From a bacterium (lineage in GTDB: Bacteria; UBP6; UBA1177; G963667425): 64,000 nucleotides of DNA. Positions within the stretch are counted from its first letter, which is position 1. Each line of letters begins with the position of its first letter. A program made the position numbers and the translations under genes. Location: assembly GCA_963667425.1 (NCBI GenBank), contig OY763407.1, positions 1,930,281 through 1,994,280 of the forward strand, written 5' to 3'. Below, one piece after another: positions 7,726 to 64,000 of this stretch. The notes beneath the pieces are model-generated. The model made no database searches, was not told where the DNA came from, and worked only from the letters and a program-made list of their open reading frames with translations.

Positions 7726-8038
7726 AGTGATTGCAGTCAATTTTGGTCTGAACGCTCTCAATCATGGACTGAACGGACCAAATATTGGTCTCATCGTCTC
7801 CAATTTTGGTCTGATTGCCTCCAATTGACGAGTGATTACTCTCCATCGTGGTCTGAACGTTCACAATCATGGACTGAACGCACCAAATATTGGTCTAATC
7901 CTCTCCGATTTTGGTCTGATTGCACCCAATTGACGAGTGATTACTCTCCATCGTGGTCTGAACGCTCTCAATCATGGACTGAACGCGCCAAATATTGGTC
8001 TAATCTTCTCCAATTTTGGTCTGAGTGTTCTAAATTTT
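7726..8038. repeat. Tandem direct repeat, ~105-bp unit in ~3 copies, with an internal GGTCTGA-type core motif recurring about every 21-31 bp
   Basis: Near-identical units beginning GTGATT(GCAGTCAA/ACTCTCCATCGT)TTTTGGTCTGAACG...CAATCATGGACTGAACG...CCAAATATTGGTCT..ATC...TTTTGGTCTGATTGC..CCAATTGACGA at about 7726, 7832 and 7937. The array is intergenic, between the 3' end of the DUF3332 gene and the start of the RCC1 gene. Confidence 0.7.
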
Positions 8039-45960: not shown

Positions 45961-46470
45961 TCCTGAAACAATAAGCCACTTTCCATTTTCCTTAACAAAC
46001 TGAATTTGATTAACATCATCCACACTGTACCATTTTGGTTTTTCTTCTTCAAGAATTGTTTTTCCATCAGGTCCGAGTCTGCTATCAGACTGAAATCTTA
46101 AATCATAATAGTAGTAAACCAGAGCAAAACCTTTATCAGCGTCAACAGTCATATCCTTTATGATTATTGAAATATTTATCTTAAGAATTTCAGCATATTT
46201 TTCAGATTTCATAAAAGCTACTATTCCATCATAATCTACATCATCTGCTGCAATATCGGTACCGTTTTTATCATAGTATGAATCAGAAATAAGAGTTATT
46301 ATTTTTGCCGAATCTTTAGTCTTAACTGCATTGACATATTCATCAAAAACCTTTAAAACCTCTTTGTTATCAGGAGTATCTTCAATATCTGTTCCTTTAA
46401 TTTTTGATGGAGAACATGAAGCAAAACTGATAATAAGCGTCAACAGAAGGAGCATAAGAATTTTTCTCAT
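45955..46470 (-). CDS. Lipoprotein, last gene of the gsp operon (possible accessory or pilotin-like factor)
   Basis: Signal peptide plus lipobox (ISFASCSPS); 171 aa; 4-nt overlap with the upstream gspN-like gene. Function unknown. Confidence 0.5.
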   Translation of the reverse strand: MRKILMLLLLTLIISFASCSPSKIKGTDIEDTPDNKEVLKVFDEYVNAVKTKDSAKIITLISDSYYDKNGTDIAADDVDYDGIVAFMKSEKYAEILKINISIIIKDMTVDADKGFALVYYYYDLRFQSDSRLGPDGKTILEEEKPKWYSVDDVNQIQFVKENGKWLIVSGL

Positions 46471-47375
46471 TTAGACCTCTCTTTTTTTATAGTAGGATTT
46501 GTAAACATACCTTTTACACTAAATCTATATGTTAGATTCTGTTTCTCTTTTTCATCTTTAAATTGTTCAAGTGCAAGATCTATCGGAGAAAGTGAAGCAA
46601 TTGTTCCCTTTTCCTTTTCTATGACAGTAACTACTATTTCAGGTCTTGAAAAGTTAAGCCTTGTAGGATTTAGAACAACTTTGCCTGTTATATTTATTTT
46701 AAGAGCTCCAGATATATCAGCTTTTTTTATAGTAAGTTTGTTATCTTTTATTGATGCATGTAAGGATAAAGTTCCAAGTTTTAAAGGCTTAACAGTAAGA
46801 CCTTTAATTTTACCTCCAAAAACAAGATTATTTCCGGTAATATCTATCTCGCCATTCATTTTCTTTGATCTGCAAAAAGAAACAGTACCGTTTAAAGTAC
46901 CTTTACCCGCCATATCAGGAAGCAGCGTTTTAAGTAGCAGAAAAGAAACATCTTCAGCATCAACATCAAAACATACGGAAGCTTTTTCAACATCAACATT
47001 GCCGGCAAGTTCTCCGCCACTACTATTGAAATCGTTCAAAACAAAATCAACAGATTTAGACAAACCAAGCATAGTTCCTAATGAAGGAGAAATTTGTGCA
47101 CCTTGAACGCCAATAATCTTCTTACCGCTTTCCAGCAGAGAAAAATCATCAAAAGAAACAGTTTTTAAAGGAGAATAATAAGAATCTACAGCCTTAACTG
47201 AATAATCTGTTTTAAGCATTGCTTCATTTATTTTTGAAATAACAAAATCTCCAGGAAAAAACAATTTTAAAGCAATAATTATCCCGATCAGGGCAGCAAT
47301 CTCATAAAATATAATTTTTTTAATAACATTTATAATATTGGCAGGTGCTAAAAATTTTTTTAATCTCTTTTTCAT
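46467..47375 (-). CDS. T2SS GspN-like bitopic membrane protein (positional assignment)
   Basis: N-terminal TM helix (IIFYEIAALIGIIIALKLFF) followed by a periplasmic domain; position after the L/M-like genes. Confidence 0.4.
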   Translation of the reverse strand: MKKRLKKFLAPANIINVIKKIIFYEIAALIGIIIALKLFFPGDFVISKINEAMLKTDYSVKAVDSYYSPLKTVSFDDFSLLESGKKIIGVQGAQISPSLGTMLGLSKSVDFVLNDFNSSGGELAGNVDVEKASVCFDVDAEDVSFLLLKTLLPDMAGKGTLNGTVSFCRSKKMNGEIDITGNNLVFGGKIKGLTVKPLKLGTLSLHASIKDNKLTIKKADISGALKINITGKVVLNPTRLNFSRPEIVVTVIEKEKGTIASLSPIDLALEQFKDEKEKQNLTYRFSVKGMFTNPTIKKERSK

Positions 47376-47911
47376 TCTACAGCATCTCCTTTAAGGGTCG
47401 CAACAACAATTGCCGTATCATAATTTCGCTTATCATATCTCTTTTTTATGGAAACAGACTCAACAAAAACAAAACGATTATCATTTTCTATTGAATATAG
47501 AAACGTCATCAGCTCAGGAAGAGGAACCGCTCTCAAGGAAAGTTCTATTCTTTCTATTTTTGTTTTCCCCTTTATTACCGGTTTTAATTCTTTTATTGTA
47601 CTTATTTCAATATTGACCGACTCTTTTATGCCGCTAATATATGAATTAAGATTAGTATGATTGTCAGCAAGCTTTTTATAGACTCTTTCTTCCGCTTCTT
47701 TTGAACGATTGTAAAGATTTTTATAACCTGCAATTTTCTGAAGCATTTTTGTTTTGCTCCTTGCATCTGAAGTTGCAGTTTCCAGAGTTGAATCCATAAT
47801 ATACCAAACGAACATGGTCATTATAAGAAACATTACAAGGACAAAAGCTCCGAGCAGACCTTTTTCACGTTGACTTAAAGATGAAATATAGTTAGTTATT
47901 TTATCTTTCAT
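47372..47911 (-). CDS. T2SS GspM-like bitopic membrane protein
   Basis: 179 aa, single N-terminal TM helix (LLGAFVLVMFLIMTMFVWYI); size and topology match GspM; overlaps neighbouring genes. Confidence 0.45.
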   Translation of the reverse strand: MKDKITNYISSLSQREKGLLGAFVLVMFLIMTMFVWYIMDSTLETATSDARSKTKMLQKIAGYKNLYNRSKEAEERVYKKLADNHTNLNSYISGIKESVNIEISTIKELKPVIKGKTKIERIELSLRAVPLPELMTFLYSIENDNRFVFVESVSIKKRYDKRNYDTAIVVATLKGDAVE

Positions 47912-49329
47912 TAGTTTGCTCCCTTGGTTTTCTTGGATTTGTCTTCTTTTGCCTTTTTTTCAGATTCCGTAACAAAATCAAATCCTATAGAAAAATCATT
48001 TTTCCCTTTTATATTTCTGATTTGCCCCTTATTGAGGTTTTTAACATTTTTGTGTGCTTCAAGATTTTCAACCATCTTATTGAAATCTTCAAGTTTGTCA
48101 CAGTTTCCTACGAACCTTACCTTTCCATCTTTAAAAGAAAACTCTCTTATTTCAATTGAACTTTCTTCAAAAGTCAGAAGCGGAAAAAGTTCTTCCATAA
48201 CGTAAAGAGATGAATAAGGATAAACTTTTTTCTTTTCGTTAATTTCATCACCTTTAATTGTTTTCTCCATCACAGACACAGCCTGCCTCAGACTGGGATA
48301 TTCTTTTCCAAGAATTTCTTTGGTCAGAGTTTTTGTTCTACTGTCAAGTTTTTCTATTTCACTATTCACGTTGGATATTTTTATCTGCATAGAAATTATA
48401 AAAATGATAAAAGCGGAAAAAAGCATTATGGAAACAGCTATCATTTTCCTCTTGTAAAATTCAAAACCGCCTTTATACGCAAATTCATCTTTTGCAAAAT
48501 TTGCTATTGCACCTTTTTCTATTGCTGACGGCATTTCTGCAAGAACATCAGAAAGGAAAATGGTCTTTGCTTCTTTTAAAGATGTTTTTAAATAACTTTC
48601 AATGGCTGATGGAATCAATGCTGTAATAAAAAAGAGCGCTGGTTTGCCTGAGAAAAAATCTGAATATGTTGAAACAGTGTTTTCAATAACGCTATCTATA
48701 CTTTTTTTGATCAGAATTTCTTCTTCCGAACTGCTTTCAGCATCTATTTTTCCCAAAGAACCAAGCCAATCCTTATATTCCGCATCATCTGAAATCCTTG
48801 ATATGCTTCTAAGTTCAATTTCCTTTACACCATCTCCTGCAACTATCTGGGATTTGTCATCAAGCATTGCGGAATAATCATCTCCAATAATTACAGATTT
48901 TTCTCTTTCACCTGAAGAGATAAATTCATGTTCAGGAATAATACTTCTTATTTTAGAACTGTGGTTTATGAAGCGGTCAACAATTTCAGCAACATCGCTT
49001 TTTTTGACAATATACACTGTAACCTGTCCGTTTTCCTGCTGTTTTATATCAAAAATTATTTCCGCAGTTTTAAAATGCGTTATAGTTTCTATATCCTGCT
49101 CTATTATCATTTCAAGCTGATTTTTTTTAACAACAGGATACTGCTTTATAAAATATAAAACTTTTGATGCCGGAAAAAGTATGTCAATAAAATCGAACTC
49201 TTTTAAAAAATCTTCAAGACCGGCAAAATCAATTTCTTTTGAACCTAGAAAAGAGACTTTATTATAATCTTTTTCAAACTTATAAAAAACAGCCGAACTT
49301 TCACCCATCCTGCATGAAGCGTATTTCAT
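47911..49329 (-). CDS. T2SS GspL-like protein (cytoplasmic domain, TM helix, periplasmic domain)
   Basis: 472 aa; ~290-aa N-terminal cytoplasmic region, one TM helix (MIAVSIMLFSAFIIFIISM), ~160-aa periplasmic region; position between the K and M homologs. Confidence 0.45.
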   Translation of the reverse strand: MKYASCRMGESSAVFYKFEKDYNKVSFLGSKEIDFAGLEDFLKEFDFIDILFPASKVLYFIKQYPVVKKNQLEMIIEQDIETITHFKTAEIIFDIKQQENGQVTVYIVKKSDVAEIVDRFINHSSKIRSIIPEHEFISSGEREKSVIIGDDYSAMLDDKSQIVAGDGVKEIELRSISRISDDAEYKDWLGSLGKIDAESSSEEEILIKKSIDSVIENTVSTYSDFFSGKPALFFITALIPSAIESYLKTSLKEAKTIFLSDVLAEMPSAIEKGAIANFAKDEFAYKGGFEFYKRKMIAVSIMLFSAFIIFIISMQIKISNVNSEIEKLDSRTKTLTKEILGKEYPSLRQAVSVMEKTIKGDEINEKKKVYPYSSLYVMEELFPLLTFEESSIEIREFSFKDGKVRFVGNCDKLEDFNKMVENLEAHKNVKNLNKGQIRNIKGKNDFSIGFDFVTESEKKAKEDKSKKTKGAN

Positions 49330-49338
49330 CTAAACCTC

Positions 49339-50508
49339 TTACTGTTCACGGTAATAATATAGGTTACCTTCTCTATCAACAACCATTTCAATGGTACTTA
49401 CGACACCATCTTTTTCTCCTGTAGAGACAATTTTGTAAATTGAACCCTTAACCTCAAGTATATTTTTAACATTACTGTTTAATGTAATTCCTTCTTTAGA
49501 TACAACGGAAATAAAATTATCAACATTTGTAAAACCAGTTTTGGCTCTTTCTGCAAGAACTTTTCCCATAAGTTCTCTCATAGCATCTTCATTTGAGAAA
49601 ATAGACAGACTTTTATCTTCAGCATAAGCTCTGATAATAGCTTCAAGCATTTGATAATCTGCTTTGACAATGTTTATCTTACCAGTGGAATAAATAGTTA
49701 TATAAGGATAAAGTATCTTATATATAACATTGTTTACACCATAAACCATATAAAGCTCATCCAGCGTATCCAATCTTGCATTTTTTAATTTATATGAAGG
49801 AATAAAATCATCATAAAGAGGAGAATCTCCGCCAGCCATATCGATCCAGTCCTTTATATTAGCAATAAGTTCTTCTCTTGATACAAATTCTTTTCTATCT
49901 GTTCCTTCAACAAACACAAAATCATAAATATCATCACTAATCATGCTTTGAAGAATAGAAACAATTGAATCAGACATACTTGAATCGAGCATATTGAGAT
50001 TTATTTTCCCATCTTCATTTGCAAATGCCAAACTGAAATCGCCGGGAAATTCAAAGAAAGGATCACCTTCATCTTCCTTCTTAACAGCAGCAGAACCTTC
50101 ACCGCCTTTTTCTCCAGAGCTTTTCTCTTCAGCCTCTTCTTTTTTATAAATATCTGTAATATCCGCAAAAGGTCCGGCTGCTGTAAATTCTCTAAGTATT
50201 GCTGTATCAAAAGGAACTATATCCCAAATTTCAAAAGAGGCTGCACTATCACCCAAAAACTGTTTAAGAGAAGTTTCAAGCTGCTTCTGAAGGTCAAACA
50301 CGACAACTGCAAAGTTAGCTCCTGACTGAGCGAGAGCTCTGGCTTCAGCTTTTTTCTTGTACTGCATAGCAAGTTCATATTCGACTTTGGCATTGCTGTT
50401 CATATCAAAAGCTATTGGGAGCATTATAGCTATCATAACTATGACAATAAGCATTGCAATTCCTCTGTTCGAATTGATATTTTTAAACCATAAAAGCAGT
50501 TTCTTCAT
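49339..50508 (-). CDS. gspK: T2SS minor pseudopilin GspK-like
   Basis: N-terminus NRGIAMLIVIVMIAIMLPIAF lacks the Glu+5 of other pseudopilins, as in GspK; large periplasmic domain. Confidence 0.55.
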   Translation of the reverse strand: MKKLLLWFKNINSNRGIAMLIVIVMIAIMLPIAFDMNSNAKVEYELAMQYKKKAEARALAQSGANFAVVVFDLQKQLETSLKQFLGDSAASFEIWDIVPFDTAILREFTAAGPFADITDIYKKEEAEEKSSGEKGGEGSAAVKKEDEGDPFFEFPGDFSLAFANEDGKINLNMLDSSMSDSIVSILQSMISDDIYDFVFVEGTDRKEFVSREELIANIKDWIDMAGGDSPLYDDFIPSYKLKNARLDTLDELYMVYGVNNVIYKILYPYITIYSTGKINIVKADYQMLEAIIRAYAEDKSLSIFSNEDAMRELMGKVLAERAKTGFTNVDNFISVVSKEGITLNSNVKNILEVKGSIYKIVSTGEKDGVVSTIEMVVDREGNLYYYREQ

Positions 50509-51161
50509 TAAAAAGTCAAAGGCCTCTTCATTTTTATATTAAAAACAGTCTCAATTTTAAGCGGCTTTGTATCGCCATCTGTCTCAGGCATTTCCAAAGT
50601 AAGTTTTATTTTTGGAGGAAGCGAGTTTGAGTAATCCATAGATTCACTATTCCATAAAGGTCGCCAATCTTTATCTGTTTCATTCCAGTATTCAAAAACA
50701 ATTTTTTCAAAACCTTTAAGTAGGGGAAAAGTCTGTCCGCCTTTCTCAGGGTCACCGTCAACCCACGAACTTTCACGCCTGTAAAGAACGTTTACTCCAT
50801 CTTCCTCTTCTCCATAGTATTCAATTTCTGTCTGACTGCATTCCTTAACATTTTCCTGCATCTTTATGTGATTAAAAGAAGTAAATGTAACATGTGTCAC
50901 CGGTTCGTCTTCTTCAGATTTAAAGATTGTTTTATGCGTAATTTCAGGAACACCCTGATGGGTTGTTAAAAACGCATTTTCCATATCTTTTCTGATAAGT
51001 TCAACCGTGAAAAATATCTTTCTTATCCCGTTTAAGCGCTCTTTTGTTCTCGATTTTCCAGTAAGAATATTTGAAAATGAAAAATATACAGAAGAAATTA
51101 TTACAGCAGTAACTGTCATTGCGATAAGGACTTCAAGTACTGTAAAACCTTTGTTTTTCAT
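50508..51161 (-). CDS. Prepilin-type pseudopilin (GspJ-like by position)
   Basis: MKNK-G-FTVLEVLIAMTV prepilin peptidase site with Glu+5. Confidence 0.6.
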   Translation of the reverse strand: MKNKGFTVLEVLIAMTVTAVIISSVYFSFSNILTGKSRTKERLNGIRKIFFTVELIRKDMENAFLTTHQGVPEITHKTIFKSEEDEPVTHVTFTSFNHIKMQENVKECSQTEIEYYGEEEDGVNVLYRRESSWVDGDPEKGGQTFPLLKGFEKIVFEYWNETDKDWRPLWNSESMDYSNSLPPKIKLTLEMPETDGDTKPLKIETVFNIKMKRPLTF

Positions 51162-51168
51162 AATTCTT

Positions 51169-51792
51169 TTATTTTCCCATTTTTAAAGGAGTGTTTTTTA
51201 ACATAGGAGAAGGACCTCTTGTTTTTGATGCAGAGTTTGAAGAAGATGTACCAGTTGTTGAAGTTGAAATAGATCTTGAACTTTGAGAGAAATCTGTAAC
51301 TGTTCCTGGAACATTTATGAATTTTGTAAGCTCAACTTTTTCAGATTCTTTAACCCCTTCTCCCCACATTATTTTTACAGTAAGCTTTCTGACTCTTACC
51401 TTAAAAAAATCTTCAATCATAGGCTGCACCATAGAAAGAGTGCTTGCAGCCTCAGTCATTTCATCATTAACATCATCAGCTTCAGAACCGACATTAAGAT
51501 CCGGCATAGGCATATAAACTTTCTTTATGCTGTAATACCATCTGAAACCTTCATAAAGATTATCTTCAAAATCACCTTCTTCTTCCTTATCCATAGTAGG
51601 AATACCATTTTTATCTATTTCAACATCAACATCATGCATTTTAAGCCATGCGAGCTCTGTTCCCTGATAAATTTTCTCAACTTTTTCAGAGTAACGATAG
51701 CTGTACATCACTATTCTACTTATAGAAACTAACGTTCCTGCAAGAATAACTATTGCAATAACAGCTTCGAGAAGAGTAAAACCTTTTCTCAT
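51169..51792 (-). CDS. Prepilin-type pseudopilin (GspI-like by position)
   Basis: MRK-G-FTLLEAVIAIVILAG prepilin motif. Confidence 0.6.
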   Translation of the reverse strand: MRKGFTLLEAVIAIVILAGTLVSISRIVMYSYRYSEKVEKIYQGTELAWLKMHDVDVEIDKNGIPTMDKEEEGDFEDNLYEGFRWYYSIKKVYMPMPDLNVGSEADDVNDEMTEAASTLSMVQPMIEDFFKVRVRKLTVKIMWGEGVKESEKVELTKFINVPGTVTDFSQSSRSISTSTTGTSSSNSASKTRGPSPMLKNTPLKMGK

Positions 51793-52640
51793 TTTCCCTC
51801 CACATCTTCCGAGTATTCAAACATTTTCTTGAAATCTCCAAGATCTTCGGGAATATCGCCTCTTGTTATTTTTGTATCTGCAAAAAAATCACTTTCTATA
51901 TAAAACAGCGGATCACCATCTTCTTCAGCAATTGAAAGATAGAAAGGGGTTACTCTGCCTGTTGGAAAGATATAAATTACTGATTGAGCAAGTGTTTTTC
52001 TTTTAAGTTTTGCAAGCTCTTCTTCAGAAAGTTCTTCTTCATTTACATCTTCCTGAGATTCCAATAGCTCTTCTCTTATAAGAGGAACCGGCGTACTGTA
52101 AGTAAAAAATTTATCCCAGACAAGACCGGAAGGAAGTGTCATCTTTTTTGATTCAGGATTATATTCCGGTAGTAAAACCTCTTTTATACTTTTTTGCGGA
52201 GGAACAAAATTTTCCCAATTATAATAGTCATTCATCTCATCAGATTCAGATGCTTTTGTTTTCATGATATCATAAAAAGTGTTTGCACCAAGATGCGAAC
52301 CATCACCTTCAAAAGTGTCACTTTTATCTTCTATATCTTCAAGAAGTTTTTCATTACGCTTTAAAACTTTTTCAATATCATCACCGGGAATTAATGAAAA
52401 AGGAGTTTCAGTACTTTCGGCATAATATTCGCCATTTTTTATATCTACTATAATTCTGATATATTTCTGTTCTCTTATAGACTTAAGGAACATTTTTTTC
52501 AGCAAAATATTGAAGTTACCAAGTTCAGCACTGGCTCTTGATTTAGTAATGTTCATGACGCTAGGCACAGCAACACCAAGCAATAGTGCCACCAAGGCCA
52601 TAGCCACAAGCATTTCTATCATCGTAAACCCCTTTTTCAC
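51789..52640 (-). CDS. Prepilin-type pseudopilin (GspH-like by position; unusually long, 283 aa)
   Basis: MKK-G-FTMIEMLVAMALVA prepilin motif. Confidence 0.6.
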   Translation of the reverse strand: MKKGFTMIEMLVAMALVALLLGVAVPSVMNITKSRASAELGNFNILLKKMFLKSIREQKYIRIIVDIKNGEYYAESTETPFSLIPGDDIEKVLKRNEKLLEDIEDKSDTFEGDGSHLGANTFYDIMKTKASESDEMNDYYNWENFVPPQKSIKEVLLPEYNPESKKMTLPSGLVWDKFFTYSTPVPLIREELLESQEDVNEEELSEEELAKLKRKTLAQSVIYIFPTGRVTPFYLSIAEEDGDPLFYIESDFFADTKITRGDIPEDLGDFKKMFEYSEDVEGK

Positions 52641-52656
52641 AAAGAACTCCCTTTAA

Positions 52657-53097
52657 TTACTCTTCTTCTTCGTTTTCCCAGTTTGCAATATCATCACCGC
52701 CACCTTCTTTTCCATCCGGTCCAAAAGAATAGAGATCGTAACCATCTTCACCGTTTGAACCTGGAAAAATATAGATATAGCTGTTTTTCCATGGATCTAA
52801 AGGGACTTTTTTCCCATCAAGAATCTTTTCTTTTACAAGAGAATCAAGTCCTTCTTCTCCGGCAGGATATTTACCTTTTTCGCTCTTATAAAGATCAAGA
52901 GCATTCCCAAGAGTTTTTATATCCATATTAGCCTGTTTGATCTTAGATTTTTCAAGCTGTTTCATAAGACCAATACCGACACCGCCCATAACAACAGCAA
53001 GAATTGTTATGGCAATCATAATTTCCATAAGAGAAAAACCTTTTTCATTTCTTTTTTCCGAAAAAAGTTCTTTTAAGAAATTCTTAATAAAATTCAT
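52657..53097 (-). CDS. gspG: T2SS major pseudopilin GspG
   Basis: G-FSLMEIMIAITILAVVMG prepilin site plus the GspG-specific C-terminal signature (DPWKNSYIYIFPGSNGEDGYDLYSFGPDGKEGGGDDIANW); GGAGG Shine-Dalgarno upstream. Confidence 0.85.
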   Translation of the reverse strand: MNFIKNFLKELFSEKRNEKGFSLMEIMIAITILAVVMGGVGIGLMKQLEKSKIKQANMDIKTLGNALDLYKSEKGKYPAGEEGLDSLVKEKILDGKKVPLDPWKNSYIYIFPGSNGEDGYDLYSFGPDGKEGGGDDIANWENEEEE

Positions 53098-53110
53098 TGT
53101 TTCCTCCGTT

Positions 53111-54340
53111 TTATCCTATAGATTCATTAATTTTAAAAATAGGCACAATAATTGAGAAAATTATAAAACCAATAACCAGTCCAAGTGTCGCAAGCATTAT
53201 AGGCTCTATCATTGAAGTGAGTCTTTCAAGAGTATAGCGAACCTCTTTCTCATAAGAATCTGCTAATGTCTCAAGCATTGATTCAAGTTCACCGCTCTGC
53301 TCTCCAATACTTATCATACTTATAACTATCGGAGGGAATTCTCCAGACCTTTTAAGAGGAACCGAAATGGATTCACCCTCTTTTATATTTTCTTTTGCAA
53401 CAGCAATAGCAGTTTCAAGAACTTTGTTTCCAACAACTTTTTTAACTATGTCAAGTGCTTTAAGAATAGGAACACCGGCATTTAAAAGAGTTGCAAGTGT
53501 TTTTGCAAAACGGGAAATAGCTATCATTCTATTAATTCTGCCGAAAATCTTTACATTTATAAGAAACTTATCCCATCTGAAAAGACCTTTTTCCGTTTTT
53601 ATGTAACGTTTAAAAGAAATAAAGCCTCCGACAGCAACTATAATAACAAGCCACCAGTAATTAGAAAAGAATGAACTTAAACCTATCATAAATTTTGTCT
53701 GTATAGGCAGTTCCATATCCATGGAATCAAACATTTCGGAAAGTTTCGGAACAACGACAATAAACATTATAGAAATAACAATTATTGACATGACAAGCAG
53801 AATAATAGGATAAGTCATGGCAGAACGAACTCTGTTTTTAAGGTCCAGCTGCGATTCAAGAAAATCGGCAAGTCTCAAAAGAACTTTGTCTAATGCACCA
53901 CTTTCTTCACCTGCTGCTATCATATTGCAGTAAAGATCAGAAAATGTATCAGGAAAATCCTTGGCACTTCTTGAAAAGCTGTAACCTTCCTGAATTTTGT
54001 TTTTAACAAGCATCATCGTTTCTTTAAGATATGCATTCTGCTGTTGTTCTGCAACTGCTCCAAGCGCTTCAACAAGCGGAATACTTGCCTTCTGAAGTGT
54101 TGCGAGAAGTCTTGTCATGGAAGCGACTTCATCTAAAGAAGCTTTTTTTGAACGGAGAGAAAGAAGCATTTTAAGATTTGTAAGATCAAAAGCATCTTTT
54201 GATGATTTTTCCTTTATATCCGAAACAAAAAGTCCTTCTGACTGAAGTTTCATTTTCAAAGTATTTCTACTCTCACTTTCAGTAATACCTTTTATCTCTT
54301 TTCCGCTTTTATCAACTACTTTATATGAAAAAAGAGGCAT
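53111..54340 (-). CDS. gspF: T2SS inner-membrane platform protein GspF
   Basis: 409 aa, two repeated GspF/PilC-type cytoplasmic domains and three TM helices. Confidence 0.85.
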   Translation of the reverse strand: MPLFSYKVVDKSGKEIKGITESESRNTLKMKLQSEGLFVSDIKEKSSKDAFDLTNLKMLLSLRSKKASLDEVASMTRLLATLQKASIPLVEALGAVAEQQQNAYLKETMMLVKNKIQEGYSFSRSAKDFPDTFSDLYCNMIAAGEESGALDKVLLRLADFLESQLDLKNRVRSAMTYPIILLVMSIIVISIMFIVVVPKLSEMFDSMDMELPIQTKFMIGLSSFFSNYWWLVIIVAVGGFISFKRYIKTEKGLFRWDKFLINVKIFGRINRMIAISRFAKTLATLLNAGVPILKALDIVKKVVGNKVLETAIAVAKENIKEGESISVPLKRSGEFPPIVISMISIGEQSGELESMLETLADSYEKEVRYTLERLTSMIEPIMLATLGLVIGFIIFSIIVPIFKINESIG

Positions 54341-56031
54341 TATGAATCCTCCTGAGTAACACGAAGAATTTCATCAGGTGATGTTATTCCTTTTACCGCT
54401 TTTAAAGCACCATCTTCTCTTAAAGTCAGCATTCCATTTGAAGAAGCTATTTTCTTTATTTCAGAAGAACTGCTTCTGTTTACAACAGCACGTCTCATTT
54501 CATCATCTATTTTTATAAGCTCAAAAATACCTGTTCGTCCCTGATAACCTATACCTCGACACAAATCACACCCTTCGGCACGATAAAAAATATGAGATTC
54601 ATATTCTTGCGGATCCAGACCCAAATCCTCAAGTATAGCAGGTTCAGGATGATATGGTTTTTTACAGTGGGGACACAGTATTCTTACAAGTCGTTGCGCA
54701 AGAACACCAACAATAGTTGATGTCAGAAGAAATGGCTCAACACCCATATCAGTAAGCCTTGTAAAAACAGAAGGAGCATCATTTGTGTGTATAGTGCTCA
54801 AAACAAGGTGACCTGTAAGTGCAGCCTGTATTGCTATGTCAGCTGTATCTTTATCTCTGATTTCTCCAACCATTATAATATCAGGATCCTGACGAAGAAT
54901 AGATCTTAAACCATGAGCAAAAGTAAGCCCTATTTTACTGTTTATATGAATCTGATTTATACCTTTAAGCTGAATTTCAACAGGATCTTCTTCTGTTATG
55001 ATTTTTACATCAGGAGAATTTATTTCTGTTAAAGCGGAATAAAGAGTTGTCGTTTTTCCACTTCCGGTAGGACCGCAGACAAGAAATATTCCATGCTTTT
55101 TATTTATCAGCTCTCTCATTGTTTTAAGATCTCTGGATGTAAAGCCTGAAGCATCAAGAGAAAGTTTCTGTGATTTTTTATCCAGAATTCTGAGTACTAC
55201 AGACTCGCCATGAGTAGAAGGAAGAGTTGAAAGTCTTAAATCTATATCATTTCCGGCAATCCTTACTTTGATATTACCATCCTGAGGAAGTCTTTTTTCA
55301 GAAATATTAAGTTTACCCATAATTTTAAGCCTTGTAATAAGACCCGCCTGAGCAGCTTTAGGAACTCTCTGAAAAACATTAAGTTTGCCATCTTTTCTGA
55401 ATCTGACCAGAACTTCATCTTCAAAACTTTCAAAATGAATATCACTTACTCTGTCTTTTGCAGCTCTGGCAATAGTATTATTGACAAAACGGATAATTGG
55501 AGCTTCATCATTACTGTCAATAAGATCAGGAATTGATGTATCATCTTCGGCAGACATTTCCTTAAATTCTTCTGCATTAAGACCTTTGTCTGCAGTTTCG
55601 ACACGACTATAGAGATTGTTAATGATATCCATTATCTTAATATCATTTACAAGAAAAGGAACCGCTGTTTTTCCATAAATAAGATAAAGCTGATTAAAAA
55701 GAAGAGAAATCTCATTGCTGGAAGTAACCACAATCAGTTTGTTGTTCTCTTCACATAAAGGAATTGCCATATACCGTTTTGCAAGAAAAATAGGAAACTG
55801 CTCTAGCATAACAAGATCTGCCTTTTCAAGATCCTTTTCATCAAAAAACTTAAAACCGGATTGTTCCTGAAGAGAATTAAAGAGATTTTCAATAGTCAGA
55901 GATGTTTCTTCCCTAAGTATCGAACCTATTTTCTGGTTCTGATTCTTAGACTGAGAAACAAGAGCATCACCAAGCTCTTTTTCTGTTATAAAACCTTTTT
56001 CCAGAAGTATTTCGCCTATTTTCTTTTTCAT
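54340..56031 (-). CDS. gspE: T2SS ATPase GspE with N-terminal MshEN-like domain
   Basis: Walker A (GPTGSGKTT), Asp/His boxes, tetracysteine zinc motif (CPHCKK ... CDLCRGIGYQGR); N-terminus KIGEILLEKGFITEKELGDALVSQ. Start set at ATG 56031, which overlaps the gspD stop. Confidence 0.9.
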   Translation of the reverse strand: MKKKIGEILLEKGFITEKELGDALVSQSKNQNQKIGSILREETSLTIENLFNSLQEQSGFKFFDEKDLEKADLVMLEQFPIFLAKRYMAIPLCEENNKLIVVTSSNEISLLFNQLYLIYGKTAVPFLVNDIKIMDIINNLYSRVETADKGLNAEEFKEMSAEDDTSIPDLIDSNDEAPIIRFVNNTIARAAKDRVSDIHFESFEDEVLVRFRKDGKLNVFQRVPKAAQAGLITRLKIMGKLNISEKRLPQDGNIKVRIAGNDIDLRLSTLPSTHGESVVLRILDKKSQKLSLDASGFTSRDLKTMRELINKKHGIFLVCGPTGSGKTTTLYSALTEINSPDVKIITEEDPVEIQLKGINQIHINSKIGLTFAHGLRSILRQDPDIIMVGEIRDKDTADIAIQAALTGHLVLSTIHTNDAPSVFTRLTDMGVEPFLLTSTIVGVLAQRLVRILCPHCKKPYHPEPAILEDLGLDPQEYESHIFYRAEGCDLCRGIGYQGRTGIFELIKIDDEMRRAVVNRSSSSEIKKIASSNGMLTLREDGALKAVKGITSPDEILRVTQEDS

Positions 56032-58553
56032 CAATACTCCTCATCATCGATAGCAGGAACTTTTTCCTTTGCAGAATCAAATATTTCATCCTTAATCTGG
56101 GTATCCTGCATACTTCCATCAGGAGTTATTATTTTTGCATCTATTTTACTGTTTATATGCTGTTCAATAAGTTCATCTTCTCTTTTCGATTCAGAGTTTA
56201 TTTTCTGGAAAAGAGAAAGCAGCATTCCTCTTTTCTTTTCCATAAATATGTTATTCTGGACATCTTTTATTTTACCGTAAAACTTCTTTGCGAATTCTTC
56301 TCTCTCTTTTGTCTTTTTCTGATAAATTCTGTCAAAATCTATTTTACTTTCAATAATATGAGGAGTGAGAATAAGAAGAAGATTCGATTTCTTATTTGTT
56401 TTTGTAGTGTATTTAAAAAGATTTCCAAGAACAGGAATATCGCCAAGTAAAGGAATTTTGTTTTCATATTCAGAAACGTAATCCTTCATAAGACCGCCGA
56501 TAACTATCGTCTGCTCATTTTCAGCATTTACAATAGTTTTAGCAGATCTTTTAGTAGTAATATAACCGTAGCTAGTCTGGGCACCAAGTTCTGTAACCTC
56601 CTGCTGAACATCAAGTGTCATATAACCACCGTCATTGATTTGAGGTTTTATTTTAAGTTTAAGCGCAACATCTTCTCTTGTATAAGTTACAGTACTTCCT
56701 GCCGTGCTGTTAATAATCGTACCTGAAGGGAAAGGAACTGTTTCACCTACTGTGATTTCAGCTTCTTCGTTATCTGTGGTAAGAATATGAGGAGTCGACA
56801 TAACATTAACGTTAGTATCACTTTTAGCTGCATTAAGAAGCATACCAACAGAAGGAACTCCACCAAAAACACCAATACCAGGAATATCTTCTGTACTGCT
56901 TACCGTTGAAGAACTAAGCATACCTGAAACAAAACCAGGAGTTGGAGTTGTAAGAGCCTTTCCAAAGAATATAGGCACTTTTTCTCCATTAATGTTTGCA
57001 TTATAACCACCGGCAGCATAAGCAAGACCATATTCTGAGTCTTCCTGCACATTTACTTCCATAATTATTGCTTCAACAAAAACCTGTTTTCTTCTCTGAT
57101 CCAGCTCCTTTATAACATTTTTCAGACTTTTATAATCCCTAAGAGAAGCAACAACAACCAGAGAATTTGTAGATTCATCAGCAGAAAGGCTGACCTCACC
57201 TTCAAAAATGGAAGAACCTTTTGAATTTTTCTGATTTCCTTTATATTGAGCAACCTTTGAAAGAGTTGTTACAAGATCTTTTGCTTTGGCATTCTGAAGA
57301 GGAACAACATGAACTTCTCCCTCACCCTCAACTTGAGTATCAAGTTTAGAAAGAATTGTTATTGCAAGTTTATAGTTTGCCTTTGTTGTAAGAAAGACAA
57401 GCTGTTCACTTCTGTCATCAGCAACAATATGAATAAAGTTTGCAACATCATCATCAGAAGATGCAGTAATATCTTTTTTATTTCTAGCTTTATTGTTATT
57501 GTTTGCATTAACCCCTGCTTTATTTGATATTTCAGCAAGAGAAGGGACTTCAGCACTGTTTTTGTTTCTCTTGTTCATCTGGGAAGCAAGCGGCTTAAAA
57601 ATTTCTTCCAGTGTTTTCTTGGCATCTGTGGGGGAAACATGTTTAAGCTTTACAAAGAAAAATTCAGGAATTTCTGTTTCCGGCCTTGGTTTATCAAGAT
57701 CTGCAACAACTTTAAGCATTTTTCTAATATTTGCGGCATAATCAACAATAAGAATAGTCTTGTCATCAAAAACCAGAAGACTTCCACCCTTGCCTCTGAA
57801 AATATTAAGAACTTTCTGCATCTCCTTAGCATCTGTATTTGCGACTCTTATTATTGTTGCAACCATTGTAAAAGTGTAAGGTATAGCATTTTCTTTACCA
57901 TAATATGGAATATTAGTTGAAACCGCATCTTTCTCGGACATAACGATAGTATATTTCCCATCTGGAACCACGGTTACATTGTTTACAGAAAGAACAGTAA
58001 GAAATGTTTTATATGCATCTTTTATAGTAACGGAAGAAGGAGACATTATTGTGACTTTTGATTTAGCAAGACGTTCCTGAAGAATAAAATTCTTTTTCAT
58101 TTTTTCGCTAAACCATTTTATAACATCAAGAAGAGGTGTTTCCTGAAAATCAAGCCAGACTTTAGCATCATCAGGAAGAGGTTTGTCAGTGTGAACAGAT
58201 TCAATTTTTATTGTATCTGAAGCTGTAGTTTTTCTTGAAGAATCATATTCCGGAACAGAAGGAACTGCAGGAGTTGTTGTAGCTCTGTTAACAACTTTTG
58301 CCTGCGGAGCTTTTACTTCTTGTTTTACAGAATCATCCTTTTTTTCCTCTTTATTGGAATCTTCCTCTTTCTTTTCACTATCTTCATCCTTTTTTTTATC
58401 TTTTTCAGGCATTTTCTTTAATTTTGTATCACCCAGTCTTGCCTTTGTAAGAGGAAATTTTATCTTACTCGGATCTAGTTTCATCTGAGCATCCAGGACC
58501 AGAGGTAAAACAAAAATAATTAAAAACAAAATCGAGAGCAATCTGCTTTTCAT
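56031..58553 (-). CDS. gspD: T2SS outer-membrane secretin GspD
   Basis: Signal peptide; N0/N1-type domains; C-terminal secretin domain (IPLLGDIPVLGNLFKYTTKTNKKSNLLLILTPHII); ~100-aa charged low-complexity insertion after the signal peptide. Confidence 0.9.
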   Translation of the reverse strand: MKSRLLSILFLIIFVLPLVLDAQMKLDPSKIKFPLTKARLGDTKLKKMPEKDKKKDEDSEKKEEDSNKEEKKDDSVKQEVKAPQAKVVNRATTTPAVPSVPEYDSSRKTTASDTIKIESVHTDKPLPDDAKVWLDFQETPLLDVIKWFSEKMKKNFILQERLAKSKVTIMSPSSVTIKDAYKTFLTVLSVNNVTVVPDGKYTIVMSEKDAVSTNIPYYGKENAIPYTFTMVATIIRVANTDAKEMQKVLNIFRGKGGSLLVFDDKTILIVDYAANIRKMLKVVADLDKPRPETEIPEFFFVKLKHVSPTDAKKTLEEIFKPLASQMNKRNKNSAEVPSLAEISNKAGVNANNNNKARNKKDITASSDDDVANFIHIVADDRSEQLVFLTTKANYKLAITILSKLDTQVEGEGEVHVVPLQNAKAKDLVTTLSKVAQYKGNQKNSKGSSIFEGEVSLSADESTNSLVVVASLRDYKSLKNVIKELDQRRKQVFVEAIIMEVNVQEDSEYGLAYAAGGYNANINGEKVPIFFGKALTTPTPGFVSGMLSSSTVSSTEDIPGIGVFGGVPSVGMLLNAAKSDTNVNVMSTPHILTTDNEEAEITVGETVPFPSGTIINSTAGSTVTYTREDVALKLKIKPQINDGGYMTLDVQQEVTELGAQTSYGYITTKRSAKTIVNAENEQTIVIGGLMKDYVSEYENKIPLLGDIPVLGNLFKYTTKTNKKSNLLLILTPHIIESKIDFDRIYQKKTKEREEFAKKFYGKIKDVQNNIFMEKKRGMLLSLFQKINSESKREDELIEQHINSKIDAKIITPDGSMQDTQIKDEIFDSAKEKVPAIDDEEY

Positions 58554-58593
58554 CTTTTCAAACTCCGTTTATATAAAATTTAAATTCTTCAAA

Positions 58594-59565
58594 TTATTCT
58601 ATGGTATACTCCATAGATTCAGGTTTTCCGCCTCTTACAATATTAAGAGAAATCTTATCGGCATTTCTAAGCCTCTGATAAGCTTCAAGAGCTTTATCAG
58701 GACTCGAAATATCAATTCCATTTATGTTTTTTATGACATCTCCATTCTGAAGTCCTATTTGACTGTAAAGGCTGTTCGGCCTTATCGAAAAAATCTTAAA
58801 ACCAGCTTCGCCTCTGGCAGGAACAATTCTGGCCTGTCTTGCAAGAACGTTAAGATTTGTTGTCGCTTTCATTATTTCGCTTCTTGAAACGACATAACTA
58901 TGATCATCTATTTTTCTAATATTTACATCCTGTTGAGTCGGCATAGCATTATTTATTGGTGCTTTTACAGCGACATCTTTATTTTTCGGCCTATTGGTTA
59001 TTGCATCACCAAGACACCTTACACCTGAAGGTGTTTCAAAAACAACTATATTTCTATCAACATAAAGAAGTTTGGTTCCTTTATCAACCTCTTCCCCAAC
59101 AGAAATTACAGTGGGAGGAATCTCATCTTTTGTTGCTTTTTGTTCAACAGAAATGGAAGAATACTCCACAGGAATTGCAGGAACAATAGCCGTAAGCTTA
59201 ACACCATCCAAAGCCTGACATTTATCAGGATTGTTAAGATAATAGTTGATATCAGTAGGCTCGTTCTTAGATTCTTTTACAAGAGCTCCGTCAGTATTTA
59301 TTCCAGGTACAACAACAGAAAGATCTATCTGGCGCTGTTCCAGATCAAAAATATTATGCTCTGAAACAGATGTTTTATCTTCTCCAAAGAAAACTATTTT
59401 TTTATTATTAATATTACCTTCTGTTTTTTCGTAATAATCTTTTCCAAGCGGAACATAAATAATGTTTTTACCAACAGCAACTGAAATTGCAAAACCTGTC
59501 AATGCAAAGAAAAGAAAGGCAAGTGAAACAAAAACAGCGATATCAAAAAGAGTTCTATTTCTCAT
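58594..59565 (-). CDS. gspC: T2SS GspC-like protein with C-terminal PDZ domain
   Basis: Start at ATG 59565 with GGAAGGAG upstream; N-terminal TM helix (IAVFVSLAFLFFALTGFAI); C-terminal PDZ-like segment (GFKIFSIRPNSLYSQIGLQNGDVIKNINGIDI); first gene of the operon, immediately upstream of gspD. Confidence 0.6.
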   Translation of the reverse strand: MRNRTLFDIAVFVSLAFLFFALTGFAISVAVGKNIIYVPLGKDYYEKTEGNINNKKIVFFGEDKTSVSEHNIFDLEQRQIDLSVVVPGINTDGALVKESKNEPTDINYYLNNPDKCQALDGVKLTAIVPAIPVEYSSISVEQKATKDEIPPTVISVGEEVDKGTKLLYVDRNIVVFETPSGVRCLGDAITNRPKNKDVAVKAPINNAMPTQQDVNIRKIDDHSYVVSRSEIMKATTNLNVLARQARIVPARGEAGFKIFSIRPNSLYSQIGLQNGDVIKNINGIDISSPDKALEAYQRLRNADKISLNIVRGGKPESMEYTIE

Positions 59566-59674
59566 CGGCTCCTTCCAGAAAAATTTCAACGATGCCGATA
59601 TAAGCAAAAAAAATGCCAAAACCCTTTTCTTTAAATATCAACGGGTTACAAAACCGTTTTTGTATGCCAAAAAA

Positions 59675-61836: not shown

Positions 61837-63147
61837 CTATTTCAGAACAACGCCCCATTCAAGAAGTGAAAACCCTTTTCTTTCAAAACTTTTTATCTCT
61901 GGCTTAGCAAGAAAATCCCTGCAGGTATCATCTTTTTTTATGACATAAAAAAGACGCTGAACAGAATCAGGAGTTTTGGAAATATTTATTTTTATCAGCT
62001 TATCTATCTCATCTGCTGTCTGAGGATAAATATCATAACAGCTTTCATTAAGTCTTGGAATCCACCATTCAATAAAATCTTCCACTTCCTTACCTTTAAA
62101 ACCGTAACGAGCAAGATTTTCTCTGAAAAATTTCTCCAGATTATCCTTTTTCACTGTCCAGCCAGTTTTATACTGATAAAAATCAGGATGCTGAGCTTCA
62201 TAAAAAAGATATCCATATTCACCATTAATCGTTCCATCAGGTTCAACCGTAACATTCCATCCATCACCATATTCAGGAATAGATTTTGTTACAAAACCGC
62301 CCTGAGGAAATTCAAGTGAAAGAGAAATATCCATTTTTTCTTCAGGATAAAGGTAAATATTTGGCTTATAATCCTGAGCCATCGCAGAAACTCTTATATC
62401 AATATAATTTGAATCTATAGAAACCGGCTCATCATATTGAGAACCATCAGAATCAGTAAAACTAAAAATATAATCGCCGATTGGAATATCAATAACAAAT
62501 TTACCGTTGGTACTAAAACAACCAACTTTTTTTCCATCTTTGTCATAAACTGTAACATCTGCAAATAAAGAAGAAGGACCAAAATAATCCTGAACTATAA
62601 AGATATTTCCATTAACATAGTTTTTCATAATGGGATCAAGATTTACCGATATGTTATCACCATATTCTGCATAAGTATAATTTGTAAAAAAACCTTCTGA
62701 TGTCTCATAAATAAAATATGAAGGAGTCTCGCCGTTGTAAGGATTTTCCTCATCAACTTCAATAACCTTGTTACCTTCACTTTGCATAGTTAAAGTATCA
62801 AGAAGATTCCCCCAGCCATTTGAATATACTGAAAGAATAATATTTTTTGCATCAGTATCAAGATTTTCATTACTGTATTCAACACTTAAATCTTTACATT
62901 CTGAAACAATATCATCATCTGCTGCTTCATCGTTTGTTTCATCAGAAATTTCATCATTTATCTCGTCAGCCACTTCATCTGCAGTTTCGTCGTTTATTTC
63001 ATCTGCAACTTCATCACTGATTTCATCAATATCAGTTTTAGGTTCAGCTTTATCATTGTCACATGAAATAAAAATAAAAATTAGTAAAAATACAAAAATT
63101 AAACTCTTCATAACATACCTCTTTATTATTTCTGCACAACGCCCCAT
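61837..63147 (-). CDS. Lipoprotein with acidic repeat linker (tandem paralog A)
   Basis: Signal peptide plus lipobox (FIFISCDND); repeats of DE[VI][AS]DE[IT]ND; beta-sandwich-like middle region and conserved C-terminal domain (FRENLARYGFKGKEVEDFIEWWIPRL ... LLEWGVVLK). Confidence 0.65.
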   Translation of the reverse strand: MGRCAEIIKRYVMKSLIFVFLLIFIFISCDNDKAEPKTDIDEISDEVADEINDETADEVADEINDEISDETNDEAADDDIVSECKDLSVEYSNENLDTDAKNIILSVYSNGWGNLLDTLTMQSEGNKVIEVDEENPYNGETPSYFIYETSEGFFTNYTYAEYGDNISVNLDPIMKNYVNGNIFIVQDYFGPSSLFADVTVYDKDGKKVGCFSTNGKFVIDIPIGDYIFSFTDSDGSQYDEPVSIDSNYIDIRVSAMAQDYKPNIYLYPEEKMDISLSLEFPQGGFVTKSIPEYGDGWNVTVEPDGTINGEYGYLFYEAQHPDFYQYKTGWTVKKDNLEKFFRENLARYGFKGKEVEDFIEWWIPRLNESCYDIYPQTADEIDKLIKINISKTPDSVQRLFYVIKKDDTCRDFLAKPEIKSFERKGFSLLEWGVVLK

Positions 63148-64000
63148 TCAAGAAGTGAAAAGCCTTTTCTTTCAAAACTTTTTATCTCTGGCTTAGCAAG
63201 AAAATCCCTGCAGGTATCATCTTTTTTTATAACATAAAAAAGACGCTGAATAGAATCAGGCGTTTTAGAAACATTTATTTTTATAACCTTATCTATCTCT
63301 TCTGCTGTCTGAGGATAAATATCATAACAGCTTTCATTAAGTCTTGGAATCCACCATTCAACAAAATCTTCTATTTCCTTACCTTTAAAGCCGTAACGAT
63401 CAAGATTTTCTCTGAAAAATTTCTCCAGATTATCTTTCTTTACCGTCCAACCGGTTTTATACTGATAAAAATCGGGTTGCTTTGCTTCGTAGAAAAGATA
63501 GCCGTATTCACCATCAATTGTTCCATCAGGTTCAACCGTAACATTCCACCCATCACCATATTCAGGAATAGATTTAACAACAGTTCCTCCTTTAGGAAAC
63601 TCAAGTGAAAGAGATATATTTTCTCTCTTTTCAGGGTAAAGATAAATATTTGGCTTGTCTACCTGAACAAGAGCATCTACAATAATTTCAATATAATTAG
63701 AATTTACAGTAACCGATTCATTATATTCAGAGTCATCAGAATCTGTAAAATTGAAAGTATAGTTTCCTGTAGGAAGATCAATTACAAACCTTCCATTTGC
63801 ATCAGCAGTAAAACAGCCAAATTTATTTCCATCACCATCGTAAACAGTCACATTACCTGTAAGCATTGAAGGACCAAAGTAATTCTGTAAAATAAAAATA
63901 TTTCCATTAATATAATTTTTCATAACCGGGTCAAGATCGACAAACACTGTTTCACCATATTTTGCATATTGAACATATGTAAAAAAACCTTCAGCTCTTT
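63126..64000 (-). CDS. Lipoprotein tandem paralog B (5' end beyond the window edge)
   Basis: The C-terminal ~270 aa align with paralog A at high identity (my estimate by eye, not computed). The reading frame stays open past the track start at 63947 to the window end and keeps aligning with paralog A (AEGFFTYVQYAKYGETVFV vs SEGFFTNYTYAEYGDNISV). Confidence 0.65.
   Translation of the reverse strand, partial: RAEGFFTYVQYAKYGETVFVDLDPVMKNYINGNIFILQNYFGPSMLTGNVTVYDGDGNKFGCFTADANGRFVIDLPTGNYTFNFTDSDDSEYNESVTVNSNYIEIIVDALVQVDKPNIYLYPEKRENISLSLEFPKGGTVVKSIPEYGDGWNVTVEPDGTIDGEYGYLFYEAKQPDFYQYKTGWTVKKDNLEKFFRENLDRYGFKGKEIEDFVEWWIPRLNESCYDIYPQTAEEIDKVIKINVSKTPDSIQRLFYVIKKDDTCRDFLAKPEIKSFERKGFSLLEWGVVQK

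Follow-up and report, generated by a model that had tools for sequence, protein, structure and literature searches.

Long acidic, repeat-built linkers behind the lipobox cysteine of unrelated lipoproteins in a sparsely sampled bacterial lineage, probably serving as tethers

The sorting of Gram-negative lipoproteins between periplasm and surface is understood in only a handful of model phyla, each with rules of its own. Roughly every second outer-membrane lipoprotein of Escherichia coli carries a disordered N-terminal linker of more than 22 residues (El Rayes et al. 2021, bioRxiv 10.1101/2021.01.05.425367). These linkers, which occur mostly on outer-membrane proteins, are needed for efficient Lol processing; their length matters and their sequence does not (10.1101/2021.01.05.425367). 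Lipoproteins of Bacteroidota use a short lipoprotein export signal (LES; C-X-K-(D/E)2, SDDDD or SDDFE) that is sufficient for surface exposure and whose position is critical (Lauber et al. 2016, PMC5080379). Here we describe long Asp/Glu-rich tracts that follow the lipobox cysteine of several predicted lipoproteins encoded in a 64,000-nucleotide stretch of a bacterial genome (contig OY763407.1, positions 1,930,281 to 1,994,280; hereafter the window). An earlier sequence-only reading of the window had flagged such a tract in a gene we call paralog A, and had proposed a lineage-specific sorting code or a cation-binding tether.

Surface display of lipoproteins can also depend on a type II secretion system (T2SS). 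The protein GspN, which combines one membrane helix with an AsmA-like beta-taco fold, is needed in Acinetobacter baumannii and Klebsiella pneumoniae specifically for lipoprotein substrates to reach the surface (Roberts, Gura & Sandkvist 2025, PMC12802150). Its substrates share a G/S- or N/D-rich motif after the cysteine, with 'GGG' or 'ND(N/D)' at P2'-P4' (for example CNDDNSSV, CNDNDDND, CGSDNDDT and CGDDSSSD; those of Burkholderia and Shewanella are Gly/Asp hybrids; PMC12802150). Pro-Thr repeat linkers have been described in the Geobacter lipoprotein PgcA (PMC10570954), and haloarchaeal lipobox proteins have been listed (PMC2945643). Disordered tethers at the N-terminus, surface signals based on charge and lipoproteins with repeats are each known already. 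For a diderm lineage that is not halophilic, our literature search turned up no account of a long post-lipobox tether rich in Asp/Glu and shared throughout the lineage. Mycoplasma Vlp and Vsa proteins are variable, repeat-containing lipoproteins. Haloarchaeal lipobox proteins have acidic Ser/Thr/Asp/Gly-rich linkers after the cysteine, and the whole haloarchaeal proteome is acidic. Like Vlp/Vsa and PgcA, the proteins described here place a tandem-repeat, low-complexity spacer of variable copy number behind the lipobox, which would project a functional domain from the membrane. They differ in repeat chemistry, and their length variation is known between orthologues.

The tracts are strongly acidic, typical of one lineage and restricted there to lipoproteins, predicted to be disordered, variable in length and derived from repeats. 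We read them as polyanionic, intrinsically disordered, repeat-derived tethers on accessory lipoproteins that probably sit at the outer membrane or surface, and give this reading a probability of about 0.6. As the best explanation, we take the tracts to be this whole lineage's own version of the N-terminal linker found on many outer-membrane lipoproteins. Judged from sequence, they may also have a role in sorting or display on the cell surface.

We compared the lipoproteins of the window and related contigs (a lineage sample of about 300 kb, gathered from the neighbourhoods of paralog A orthologues and of the RpoA gene of the closest relative) with those in about 1.7 Mb from other lineages, using the same predictor and collapsing homologues to families. 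A strong tract, defined as a net charge of -8 or lower within 20 residues, was present in 15 of 25 lineage families versus 2 of 49 elsewhere (Fisher p = 1.7e-7), and the family-level Mann-Whitney test between the lineage and other lineages gave p = 3.8e-6. The tract-bearing families are mutually unrelated: they include RCC1, Lcl_C, GON, MopE/FG-GAP-like, GH5 cellulase, peptidase C39-like, AAT-family and Cys-rich proteins and several without a Pfam match. The trait tracks lineage, not protein family. Both the recurrence in unrelated proteins and the lineage specificity supposed by the sequence-only reading were borne out. Tracts are missing from some lipoproteins of the lineage, among them an RND/HlyD-type adaptor (CNGKKDTNEIV; L082 16229-17191), an SppA-type peptidase (CFSTHVKLFSK; L165 6536-7519) and a DUF3332 protein. 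The adaptor and the SppA-type peptidase are presumably inner-membrane proteins.

Paralog A, the flagged gene, is present with a second, tandem copy at the window's edge:

61837..63111, minus strand: paralog A lipoprotein gene, 424 aa, called from its open reading frame (ORF) and lipobox; the product begins with signal peptide MKSLIFVFLLIFIFISC
62899..63060, minus strand: acidic linker, residues 18-71, DNDKAEPKTDIDEISDEVADEINDETADEVADEINDEISDETNDEAADDDIVSE, recognised by composition, tandem repeat and an AlphaFold2 (AF2) confidence score (pLDDT) of 29-39
63126..64000, minus strand: second tandem copy of paralog A, of which the C-terminal part only lies in the window; once translated, it can be aligned to the globular region of 61837-63111

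Paralog A consists of a signal peptide, the acidic linker, Ig-like beta-sandwiches and an alpha/beta domain, in that order, and is identical to P0001, a protein of a 2.95 Mb public contig. The flagged interval, 62900-63060, is minus-strand coding sequence for residues 18-71, with the Cys17 codon at 63061-63063. Asp and Glu make up 48% of the linker, Lys and Arg 4%. The linker is encoded by a degenerate tandem repeat that keeps the reading frame, with a period of 24/36 nt and 70-80% matches; Tandem Repeats Finder (TRF) reported 2.2-2.3 copies of period 24 and 2.5 copies of period 36. The nine 4-residue DExx units of the linker amount to about 4.5 eight-residue units, not quite the five or more counted earlier. 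AF2, run on a 26-sequence alignment, gave a pLDDT of 29-40 for residues 1-69 and above 90 from residue 70. The predicted disordered stretch after the cysteine (residues 18-69) exceeds the 22-residue criterion of E. coli-type linkers; disorder was modelled for paralog A, and the other window linkers were judged by composition only. As in E. coli, a disordered segment of more than 22 residues would thereby separate the lipidated cysteine from the globular domain. Unlike the E. coli linkers, for which no common charge signature is reported, the tracts here share a polyanionic composition throughout, are built from repeats, often reach greater lengths (up to about 150 residues) and recur in many families of one lineage.

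We scanned all six frames of the window for lipoprotein signals (N-terminal Lys or Arg, an uncharged hydrophobic core and a lipobox of the form [LVI..][ASTVI..][GAS]C within about 35 residues). Ten ORFs had a lipoprotein-type signal, and 8 of the 10 satisfied a PROSITE PS51257-style rule. The RCC1 protein misses that rule at position -4 alone (Asn); ORF 24324-24737 (VWSC) also misses it and is a doubtful lipoprotein. No lgt or lspA gene was found within the window. The other window lipoproteins are:

2147..3010, plus strand: predicted lipoprotein, 287 aa, lipobox MVSC, no Pfam match; acidic Cys-containing linker at residues 21-72 (2207-2362) with a TRF repeat at 2264-2303, and a second acidic tract in the C-terminal tail, residues 257-287 (2915-3007)
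4884..7433, minus strand: predicted RCC1 beta-propeller lipoprotein, 849 aa, lipobox LLSC, Pfam RCC1/WD40_RLD; acidic linker at residues 19-78 (7200-7379), TRF period 9 at 7299-7324
15113..15598, plus strand: small predicted Lcl_C (DUF1566) lipoprotein, lipobox TTSC, Pfam Lcl_C at 58.6 bits; the hexapeptide DDSEDE (15170-15187) alone follows the lipobox, then the Lcl_C domain
22677..23399, minus strand: predicted Cys-rich lipoprotein, 240 aa, with CGSDGDDNAGESVDD after the lipobox, from sequence; internal acidic linker at residues 61-86 (23142-23219), after the Cys-rich module and before the C-terminal domain
23420..24118, minus strand: paralogue of 22677-23399, 232 aa, lipobox SFGC, CDSSEGNETDNE, from sequence; internal acidic linker at residues 57-84 (23867-23950), likewise after the Cys-rich module and before the C-terminal domain
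8069..8491, minus strand: DUF3332 lipoprotein without an acidic tract (CFGSNQMF...), a contrast case, from sequence and Pfam
18589..19560, minus strand: lipoprotein with a weakly acidic N-terminus (CNKEYSSD...), a contrast case, from sequence
45955..46470, minus strand: small lipoprotein CSPSKIKGTDIEDTPDNKE, mildly acidic, last gene of the T2SS operon, from sequence

Strong tracts, rich in Asp/Glu and poor in Lys/Arg, occur in five window proteins (2147-3010, 4884-7433, 22677-23399, 23420-24118 and 61837-63111), and three linkers have tandem repeats at the DNA level by TRF. Across 68 window proteins, 164 of 18,509 twenty-residue segments had a net acidic charge of at least 8, and 148 of the 164 lay in these five lipoproteins, a concentration well beyond chance. 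Asp and Glu account for 0.26 of the first 40 mature residues of window lipoproteins, and the lipoproteins of other lineages reach 0.15-0.16 (p = 0.002, Mann-Whitney test); the fraction in the equivalent region of same-lineage non-lipoproteins with a signal peptide or membrane anchor was 0.11. The six N-termini quoted in the sequence-only reading are all exact. Its count of at least eight acidic lipoproteins captured a real architecture and was too high, because 45955-46470 is mildly acidic, 18589-19560 weakly so and 8069-8491 not at all; six are clear, namely the five with long tracts and the DDSEDE protein.

We searched paralog A against a large protein collection and examined 122 sequences. 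Twenty-eight were close full-length orthologues, on contigs of 35-61% GC, and 27 of these have a lipobox. Their linkers span 45-121 residues by a motif-based measure and 42-154 by alignment, are made of TDEx, VTDD or similar units, and contain 0.27-0.48 Asp plus Glu and at most 3% Lys plus Arg; the exceptions in composition are the orthologues with an inserted Cys-rich module. Within the paralog A family, the mean Asp plus Glu fraction of the first 40 mature residues was 0.37 in the lineage versus 0.18 outside it. Lipidated homologues from other phyla have linkers of 3-22 residues or dockerin-like N-termini. Those of Zixibacteria type have six-residue linkers (CSNSTGP...), and those of Planctomycetota and Bacillota begin with dockerin-like modules. 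N-termini of Bacteroidota type match the surface-export signal C-X-K-(D/E)2. Because the Bacteroidota homologues carry a textbook LES (CEKDE), their sequences suggest that the paralog A family works on the cell surface. A large Bacteroidota-type subgroup (within P0074-P0111) begins MGC-[EK]-K-[DE]-E-T-T-Q-P, and the folded module has a different surface-anchoring device in each phylum.

The RCC1 family gave a comparable picture. Among 30 lipidated homologues, the window protein and the full-length P0220 alone were strongly acidic, P0154 and P0157 were moderately so, and the remaining 26 had Gly-rich, Ala/Pro/Ser-rich or otherwise low-acidity linkers (Asp plus Glu 0-0.20).

Related N-termini were seen on other proteins. 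Metagenome-assembled genomes (MAGs) of Kofleriaceae/Haliangiales (L029, L030, L033, L042 and L054) encode an orthologous lipoprotein of about 500 residues 0.5-2.9 kb downstream of the rpoA match, and this protein begins C-R-(G/S)n-D4-8 (CRGGGGDDDD; e.g. CRSSGGGDDDDDDDD). Short Asp runs after the lipobox therefore also occur in neighbouring lineages (Myxococcota). One lipoprotein of the lineage itself (L088 4895-6421 / L104 2406-3932) has a post-Cys region that passes into an extended run of (S/T)G(D/N) triplets (SGDTGNSGDSGNSGN...), another low-complexity flavour in the same position.

Two compositional causes were ruled out. The window proteome is ordinary, with a mean Asp plus Glu fraction of 0.13 and a median isoelectric point of 8.9, which excludes halophile-type proteome acidity. 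The lineage resembles haloarchaea in having an acidic low-complexity linker after the cysteine in many unrelated proteins, and differs in that only the linkers are acidic. AT-rich codon bias is excluded as well: the window has about 35% GC, and the trait persists in relatives at 57-61% GC. It holds in relatives spanning 35% to 61% GC and so is no artefact of base composition.

The repeats raise the question of functionally neutral low-complexity expansion, in which slippage-prone GAT/GAA-rich repeats are tolerated where sequence is unimportant. Degenerate tandem repeats in the DNA and large length variation among orthologues are what such a process would leave, and the sequence of E. coli linkers is indeed unimportant if they are disordered. 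We nevertheless consider this explanation unlikely. The same charge pattern (30-50% Asp/Glu, at most 3% Lys/Arg) recurs in 15 unrelated families, at 35-61% GC and in differing repeat units (TDEx, VTDD), and it is absent both from the same families in other phyla and from the exported non-lipoproteins of the lineage. A charge pattern kept across families and absent elsewhere points to selection on composition. Conservation of charge across families and GC contents, depletion of Lys and Arg and restriction to lipoproteins argue for selection on physical properties.

The position of the tract was profiled with one representative per lineage family. Asp/Glu frequency at +2 to +9 was 0.04-0.24, indistinguishable from a background of 0.12-0.35, and rose to about 0.2-0.55 between about +10 and +60, versus about 0.05-0.2 in the background. 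Residues next to the cysteine are rich in Gly, Ser, Asn and Asp throughout the lineage, and the +2 residue of paralog A orthologues (n = 26) was Gly in 20, Asp in 3, Glu in 2 and Val in 1. The earlier statement that the acidic run follows the cysteine directly describes several window proteins (CDND, CDDSEDE, CSDD and CGSDGDD) and fails for the lineage as a whole, where the Asp/Glu excess begins at about +10. A sorting code adjoining the cysteine, as that reading proposed, was not supported, with Asp/Glu at +2 to +9 not above background and Gly the usual +2 residue. Acidic tracts also lie between domains (22677-23399 and 23420-24118) and at a C-terminus (2147-3010), which fits a spacer rather than an N-terminal signal alone. 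Taken together, the positional profile, the variability at +2 and the tracts elsewhere in proteins describe a spacer in which charge and disorder are conserved and neither sequence nor register is.

These positions also bear on whether the lineage uses an LES of Bacteroidota type, a short position-specific acidic motif, with a polar residue or Lys ahead of at least two Asp/Glu at +3 to +6, that flips an outer-membrane lipoprotein to the surface. The sequence-only reading was correct that acidic residues after the +1 cysteine act as surface-export signals in some phyla, which is established for Bacteroidota (Lauber et al. 2016, PMC5080379). At least two Asp/Glu residues fall within +2 to +6 in 5 of 9 window lipoproteins (CSDDC, CDDSED, CGSDGD, CDSSEG and CDNDKA); the published consensus is SDDDD, SDDFE or C-X-K-(D/E)2 (PMC5080379). 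Negative charge after the cysteine is common to both systems, and the LES is tied to surface lipoproteins (PMC5080379; Valguarnera et al. 2018, PMC6222051). We think this mechanism very unlikely here: across the 25 lineage families there is no Asp/Glu enrichment at +2 to +9, next to the cysteine, and the host lies outside Bacteroidota. An LES has 4-5 residues at a fixed and critical position (+2 to +6), whereas the tracts are ten times longer (20-150 residues) and variable in position.

Retention at the inner membrane by Asp at +2 (Lol avoidance, as in E. coli) is more improbable still. Three of 9 window lipoproteins do have Asp at +2 with Asp, Asn or Ser at +3 (CDND, CDDS and CDSS). The +2 Asp is not conserved, being present in 3 of 26 paralog A orthologues; lipoproteins expected at the inner membrane (the RND adaptor and SppA) lack acidic N-termini; and the domain types of the tract-bearing proteins are atypical of inner-membrane lipoproteins.

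Glycosylation was considered separately. The motif D-[ST]-[AILMTV] directs O-glycosylation in Bacteroidota. We discarded it as an explanation of the Thr-Asp repeats, since the window linkers contain it 0-1 times and only certain high-GC relatives have it frequently.

A second system in the window may bear on lipoprotein export. The window encodes what its gene models identify as a complete T2SS including GspN:

47372..59619, minus strand: T2SS operon, GspC to GspM part, from NCBIfam and Pfam
58594-59619, minus strand: GspC (delta type), GspC_delta at 185 bits versus a cutoff of 150
56031-58553, minus strand: GspD secretin, TIGR02517 at 454 bits versus a cutoff of 351
54340-56034, minus strand: GspE, score at about the cutoff
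53111-54340, minus strand: GspF, score at about the cutoff
52657-53097, minus strand: GspG, from NCBIfam/Pfam
49339-52640, minus strand: minor pseudopilins
47911-49329, minus strand: putative GspL
47372-47911, minus strand: GspM, from NCBIfam/Pfam
46467..47375, minus strand: GspN, 302 residues, TIGR04411 over the full length at 80 bits versus a cutoff of 50

In the predicted structure of the window GspN, a single helix at the N-terminus leads into a long, curved beta-sheet. A word-based homologue search returned one relative (70%) and an exhaustive search 24; so few relatives indicate a fast-evolving type of GspN. The small lipoprotein 45955-46470 overlaps the GspN stop and may be a T2SS accessory protein or pilotin. 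GspD has an unusual mixed-charge insert rich in Lys, Asp and Glu (KKMPEKDKKKDEDSEKKEEDSNKEEKKDD) after its signal peptide and before the residues that match the model (134-743).

We asked how closely the cysteine-proximal residues resemble GspN substrates. The mean number of Gly, Ser, Asn and Asp residues at P2'-P8' (of 7) was 4.0 in the acidic class against 2.55 in non-acidic lipoproteins and 2.4 in the background (p = 0.007); in Acinetobacter substrates it was 5.8. Five of 25 lineage families scored at least 5 (the published motif has more than 4 such residues). The cysteine-proximal G/S/N/D segment, possibly together with the acidic tract, could accordingly be a sorting signal for surface display by T2SS and GspN, as for Klebsiella PulA and Acinetobacter InvL. 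We regard this as a tentative possibility, and it is compatible with a tether, to which it would add a route. In its favour, the operon is complete and its GspN scores above the curated cutoff, with a modelled helix and curved beta-sheet; GspN is required for lipoprotein substrates in A. baumannii and K. pneumoniae (PMC12802150); and several lineage N-termini look similar (CDNDKAEP, CGNDVTNG, CGSDGDDN, CDSDSTNG, CDGSGSND and CSNGSSDE). The likeness to GspN substrates (PMC12802150) extends to a lipobox followed by residues moderately rich in G/S/N/D, a genome with T2SS and GspN, and a putative cargo of enzymes and adhesins. It is partial, at 4.0 of 7 against 5.8, and some acidic-class proteins do not fit (CTKENNPV, CTQPEDGI and CESHKNKR). 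The published motif covers P2'-P8' and includes uncharged GGG variants, whereas the Asp/Glu tract here is far longer and the organism very distant, as is its type of GspN. TIGR04411 describes a distant 'Leptospira-type' GspN whose equivalence to the gammaproteobacterial protein is assumed, and the proximity of the operon to lipoprotein genes is no functional link. The earlier remark that these lipoproteins are plausible T2SS cargo is strengthened by the GspN gene in the operon and the partial G/S/N/D likeness, and is not demonstrated. The bolder proposal, that the long polyanionic repeat tether itself is an address label sending dozens of unrelated lipoproteins to the surface through T2SS and the lipid-groove protein GspN, strikes us as doubtful.

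The tether reading can be stated as a sequence of steps. After cleavage by signal peptidase II, the protein would start at its lipidated cysteine, followed by a short G/S/N/D-rich segment, 20-150 residues of which 30-50% are Asp/Glu, and then the folded domains. By its charge the tract, rich in Thr, Ser, Asn and Val and nearly free of Lys and Arg, would stay extended and hydrated and be pushed away from the anionic membrane or lipopolysaccharide surface. A chain repelled from the membrane would hold the folded domain away from the lipid anchor, as we propose, and in-frame repeat slippage would lengthen or shorten it. The proteins so marked look like accessory lipoproteins with extracellular or adhesive domains: an RCC1 propeller, Lcl_C, GON, GH5 cellulase, Ig-like sandwiches and Cys-rich modules. 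Hints of a surface location come from the LES-bearing Bacteroidota homologues of paralog A, the dockerins of its Bacillota homologues and a tract-bearing GH5 cellulase lipoprotein in a relative.

Several points weigh against the tether reading. The lineage sample is centred on one gene family, and the lipoprotein and signal-peptide predictors are regular-expression heuristics. Some lineage lipoproteins are intermediate in acidity (45955-46470 and L168 6233-7021). The proposed mechanism is a physical argument, and the probable outer-membrane or surface location is deduced from the kinds of domain present and from homologues that belong to other phyla. When the PDB was searched with the fold of paralog A, Ig-like surface proteins matched only weakly (TM scores 0.10-0.15), the best being surface glycan-binding lipoproteins (SGBP), pilins and adhesins. 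Because these matches are weak, we assign no function to paralog A.

The high carboxylate density of the tracts also brings to mind a divalent-cation (Ca2+, Mg2+ or metal) binding or buffering layer at the envelope. Such a layer would rest on that density, and no recognisable calcium-binding motif (EF-hand, TSP3 or RTX) was noticed, without a dedicated tool search; we hold it to be a distinctly improbable account.

A signature common to most accessory lipoproteins of the lineage and absent from the same families elsewhere offers a sequence-only handle on its likely surface proteome. The lineage is also a natural test case for asking whether sorting by charge, and the route through GspN, reach beyond Gammaproteobacteria. 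Should the tract be only a spacer, it would still be a clear case in which the physical properties of a disordered linker, and not its sequence, are under selection. It would matter more if the tether proved to be a sorting label for T2SS-GspN display: surface lipoproteins would then have a third code that rests on charge and evolved independently, beside the LES and the short Acinetobacter motif, and one predictable from sequence alone.

The host was placed with RpoA and with proteins of the following operon:

24.8-43 kb, minus strand: ribosomal-protein operon

The closest RpoA match, in a scan of one genome per species, was an uncultured MAG (L001) at 70% identity; all others were at 45-54% and came from MAGs of Myxococcota, Desulfobacterota and Bdellovibrionota type. 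Over eight conserved proteins (RpoA, SecY and six ribosomal proteins), mean identity to L001 was 69%; all the others lay level at 55-59%. On these identities and the match of GspC to the 'delta' model, we place the host in a deep lineage of the former Deltaproteobacteria that has been sampled sparsely. Membership in Bacteroidota is ruled out, as RpoA and the ribosomal proteins are closest to deltaproteobacteria-type lineages. The GspD secretin indicates that the host is diderm.

One further repeat lies between genes. An intergenic tandem array at 7744-8024, for which an Rfam search gave no match, has 2.7 copies of a 105-nt period at 92% identity and is composed of sub-units of about 21 nt with common TGGTCTNA / TGGACTGAACG cores. 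The array sits just beyond the stop of the DUF3332 gene, 300-600 nt upstream of the gene for the RCC1 lipoprotein, and could be a regulator binding-site array or the remnant of a mobile repeat.

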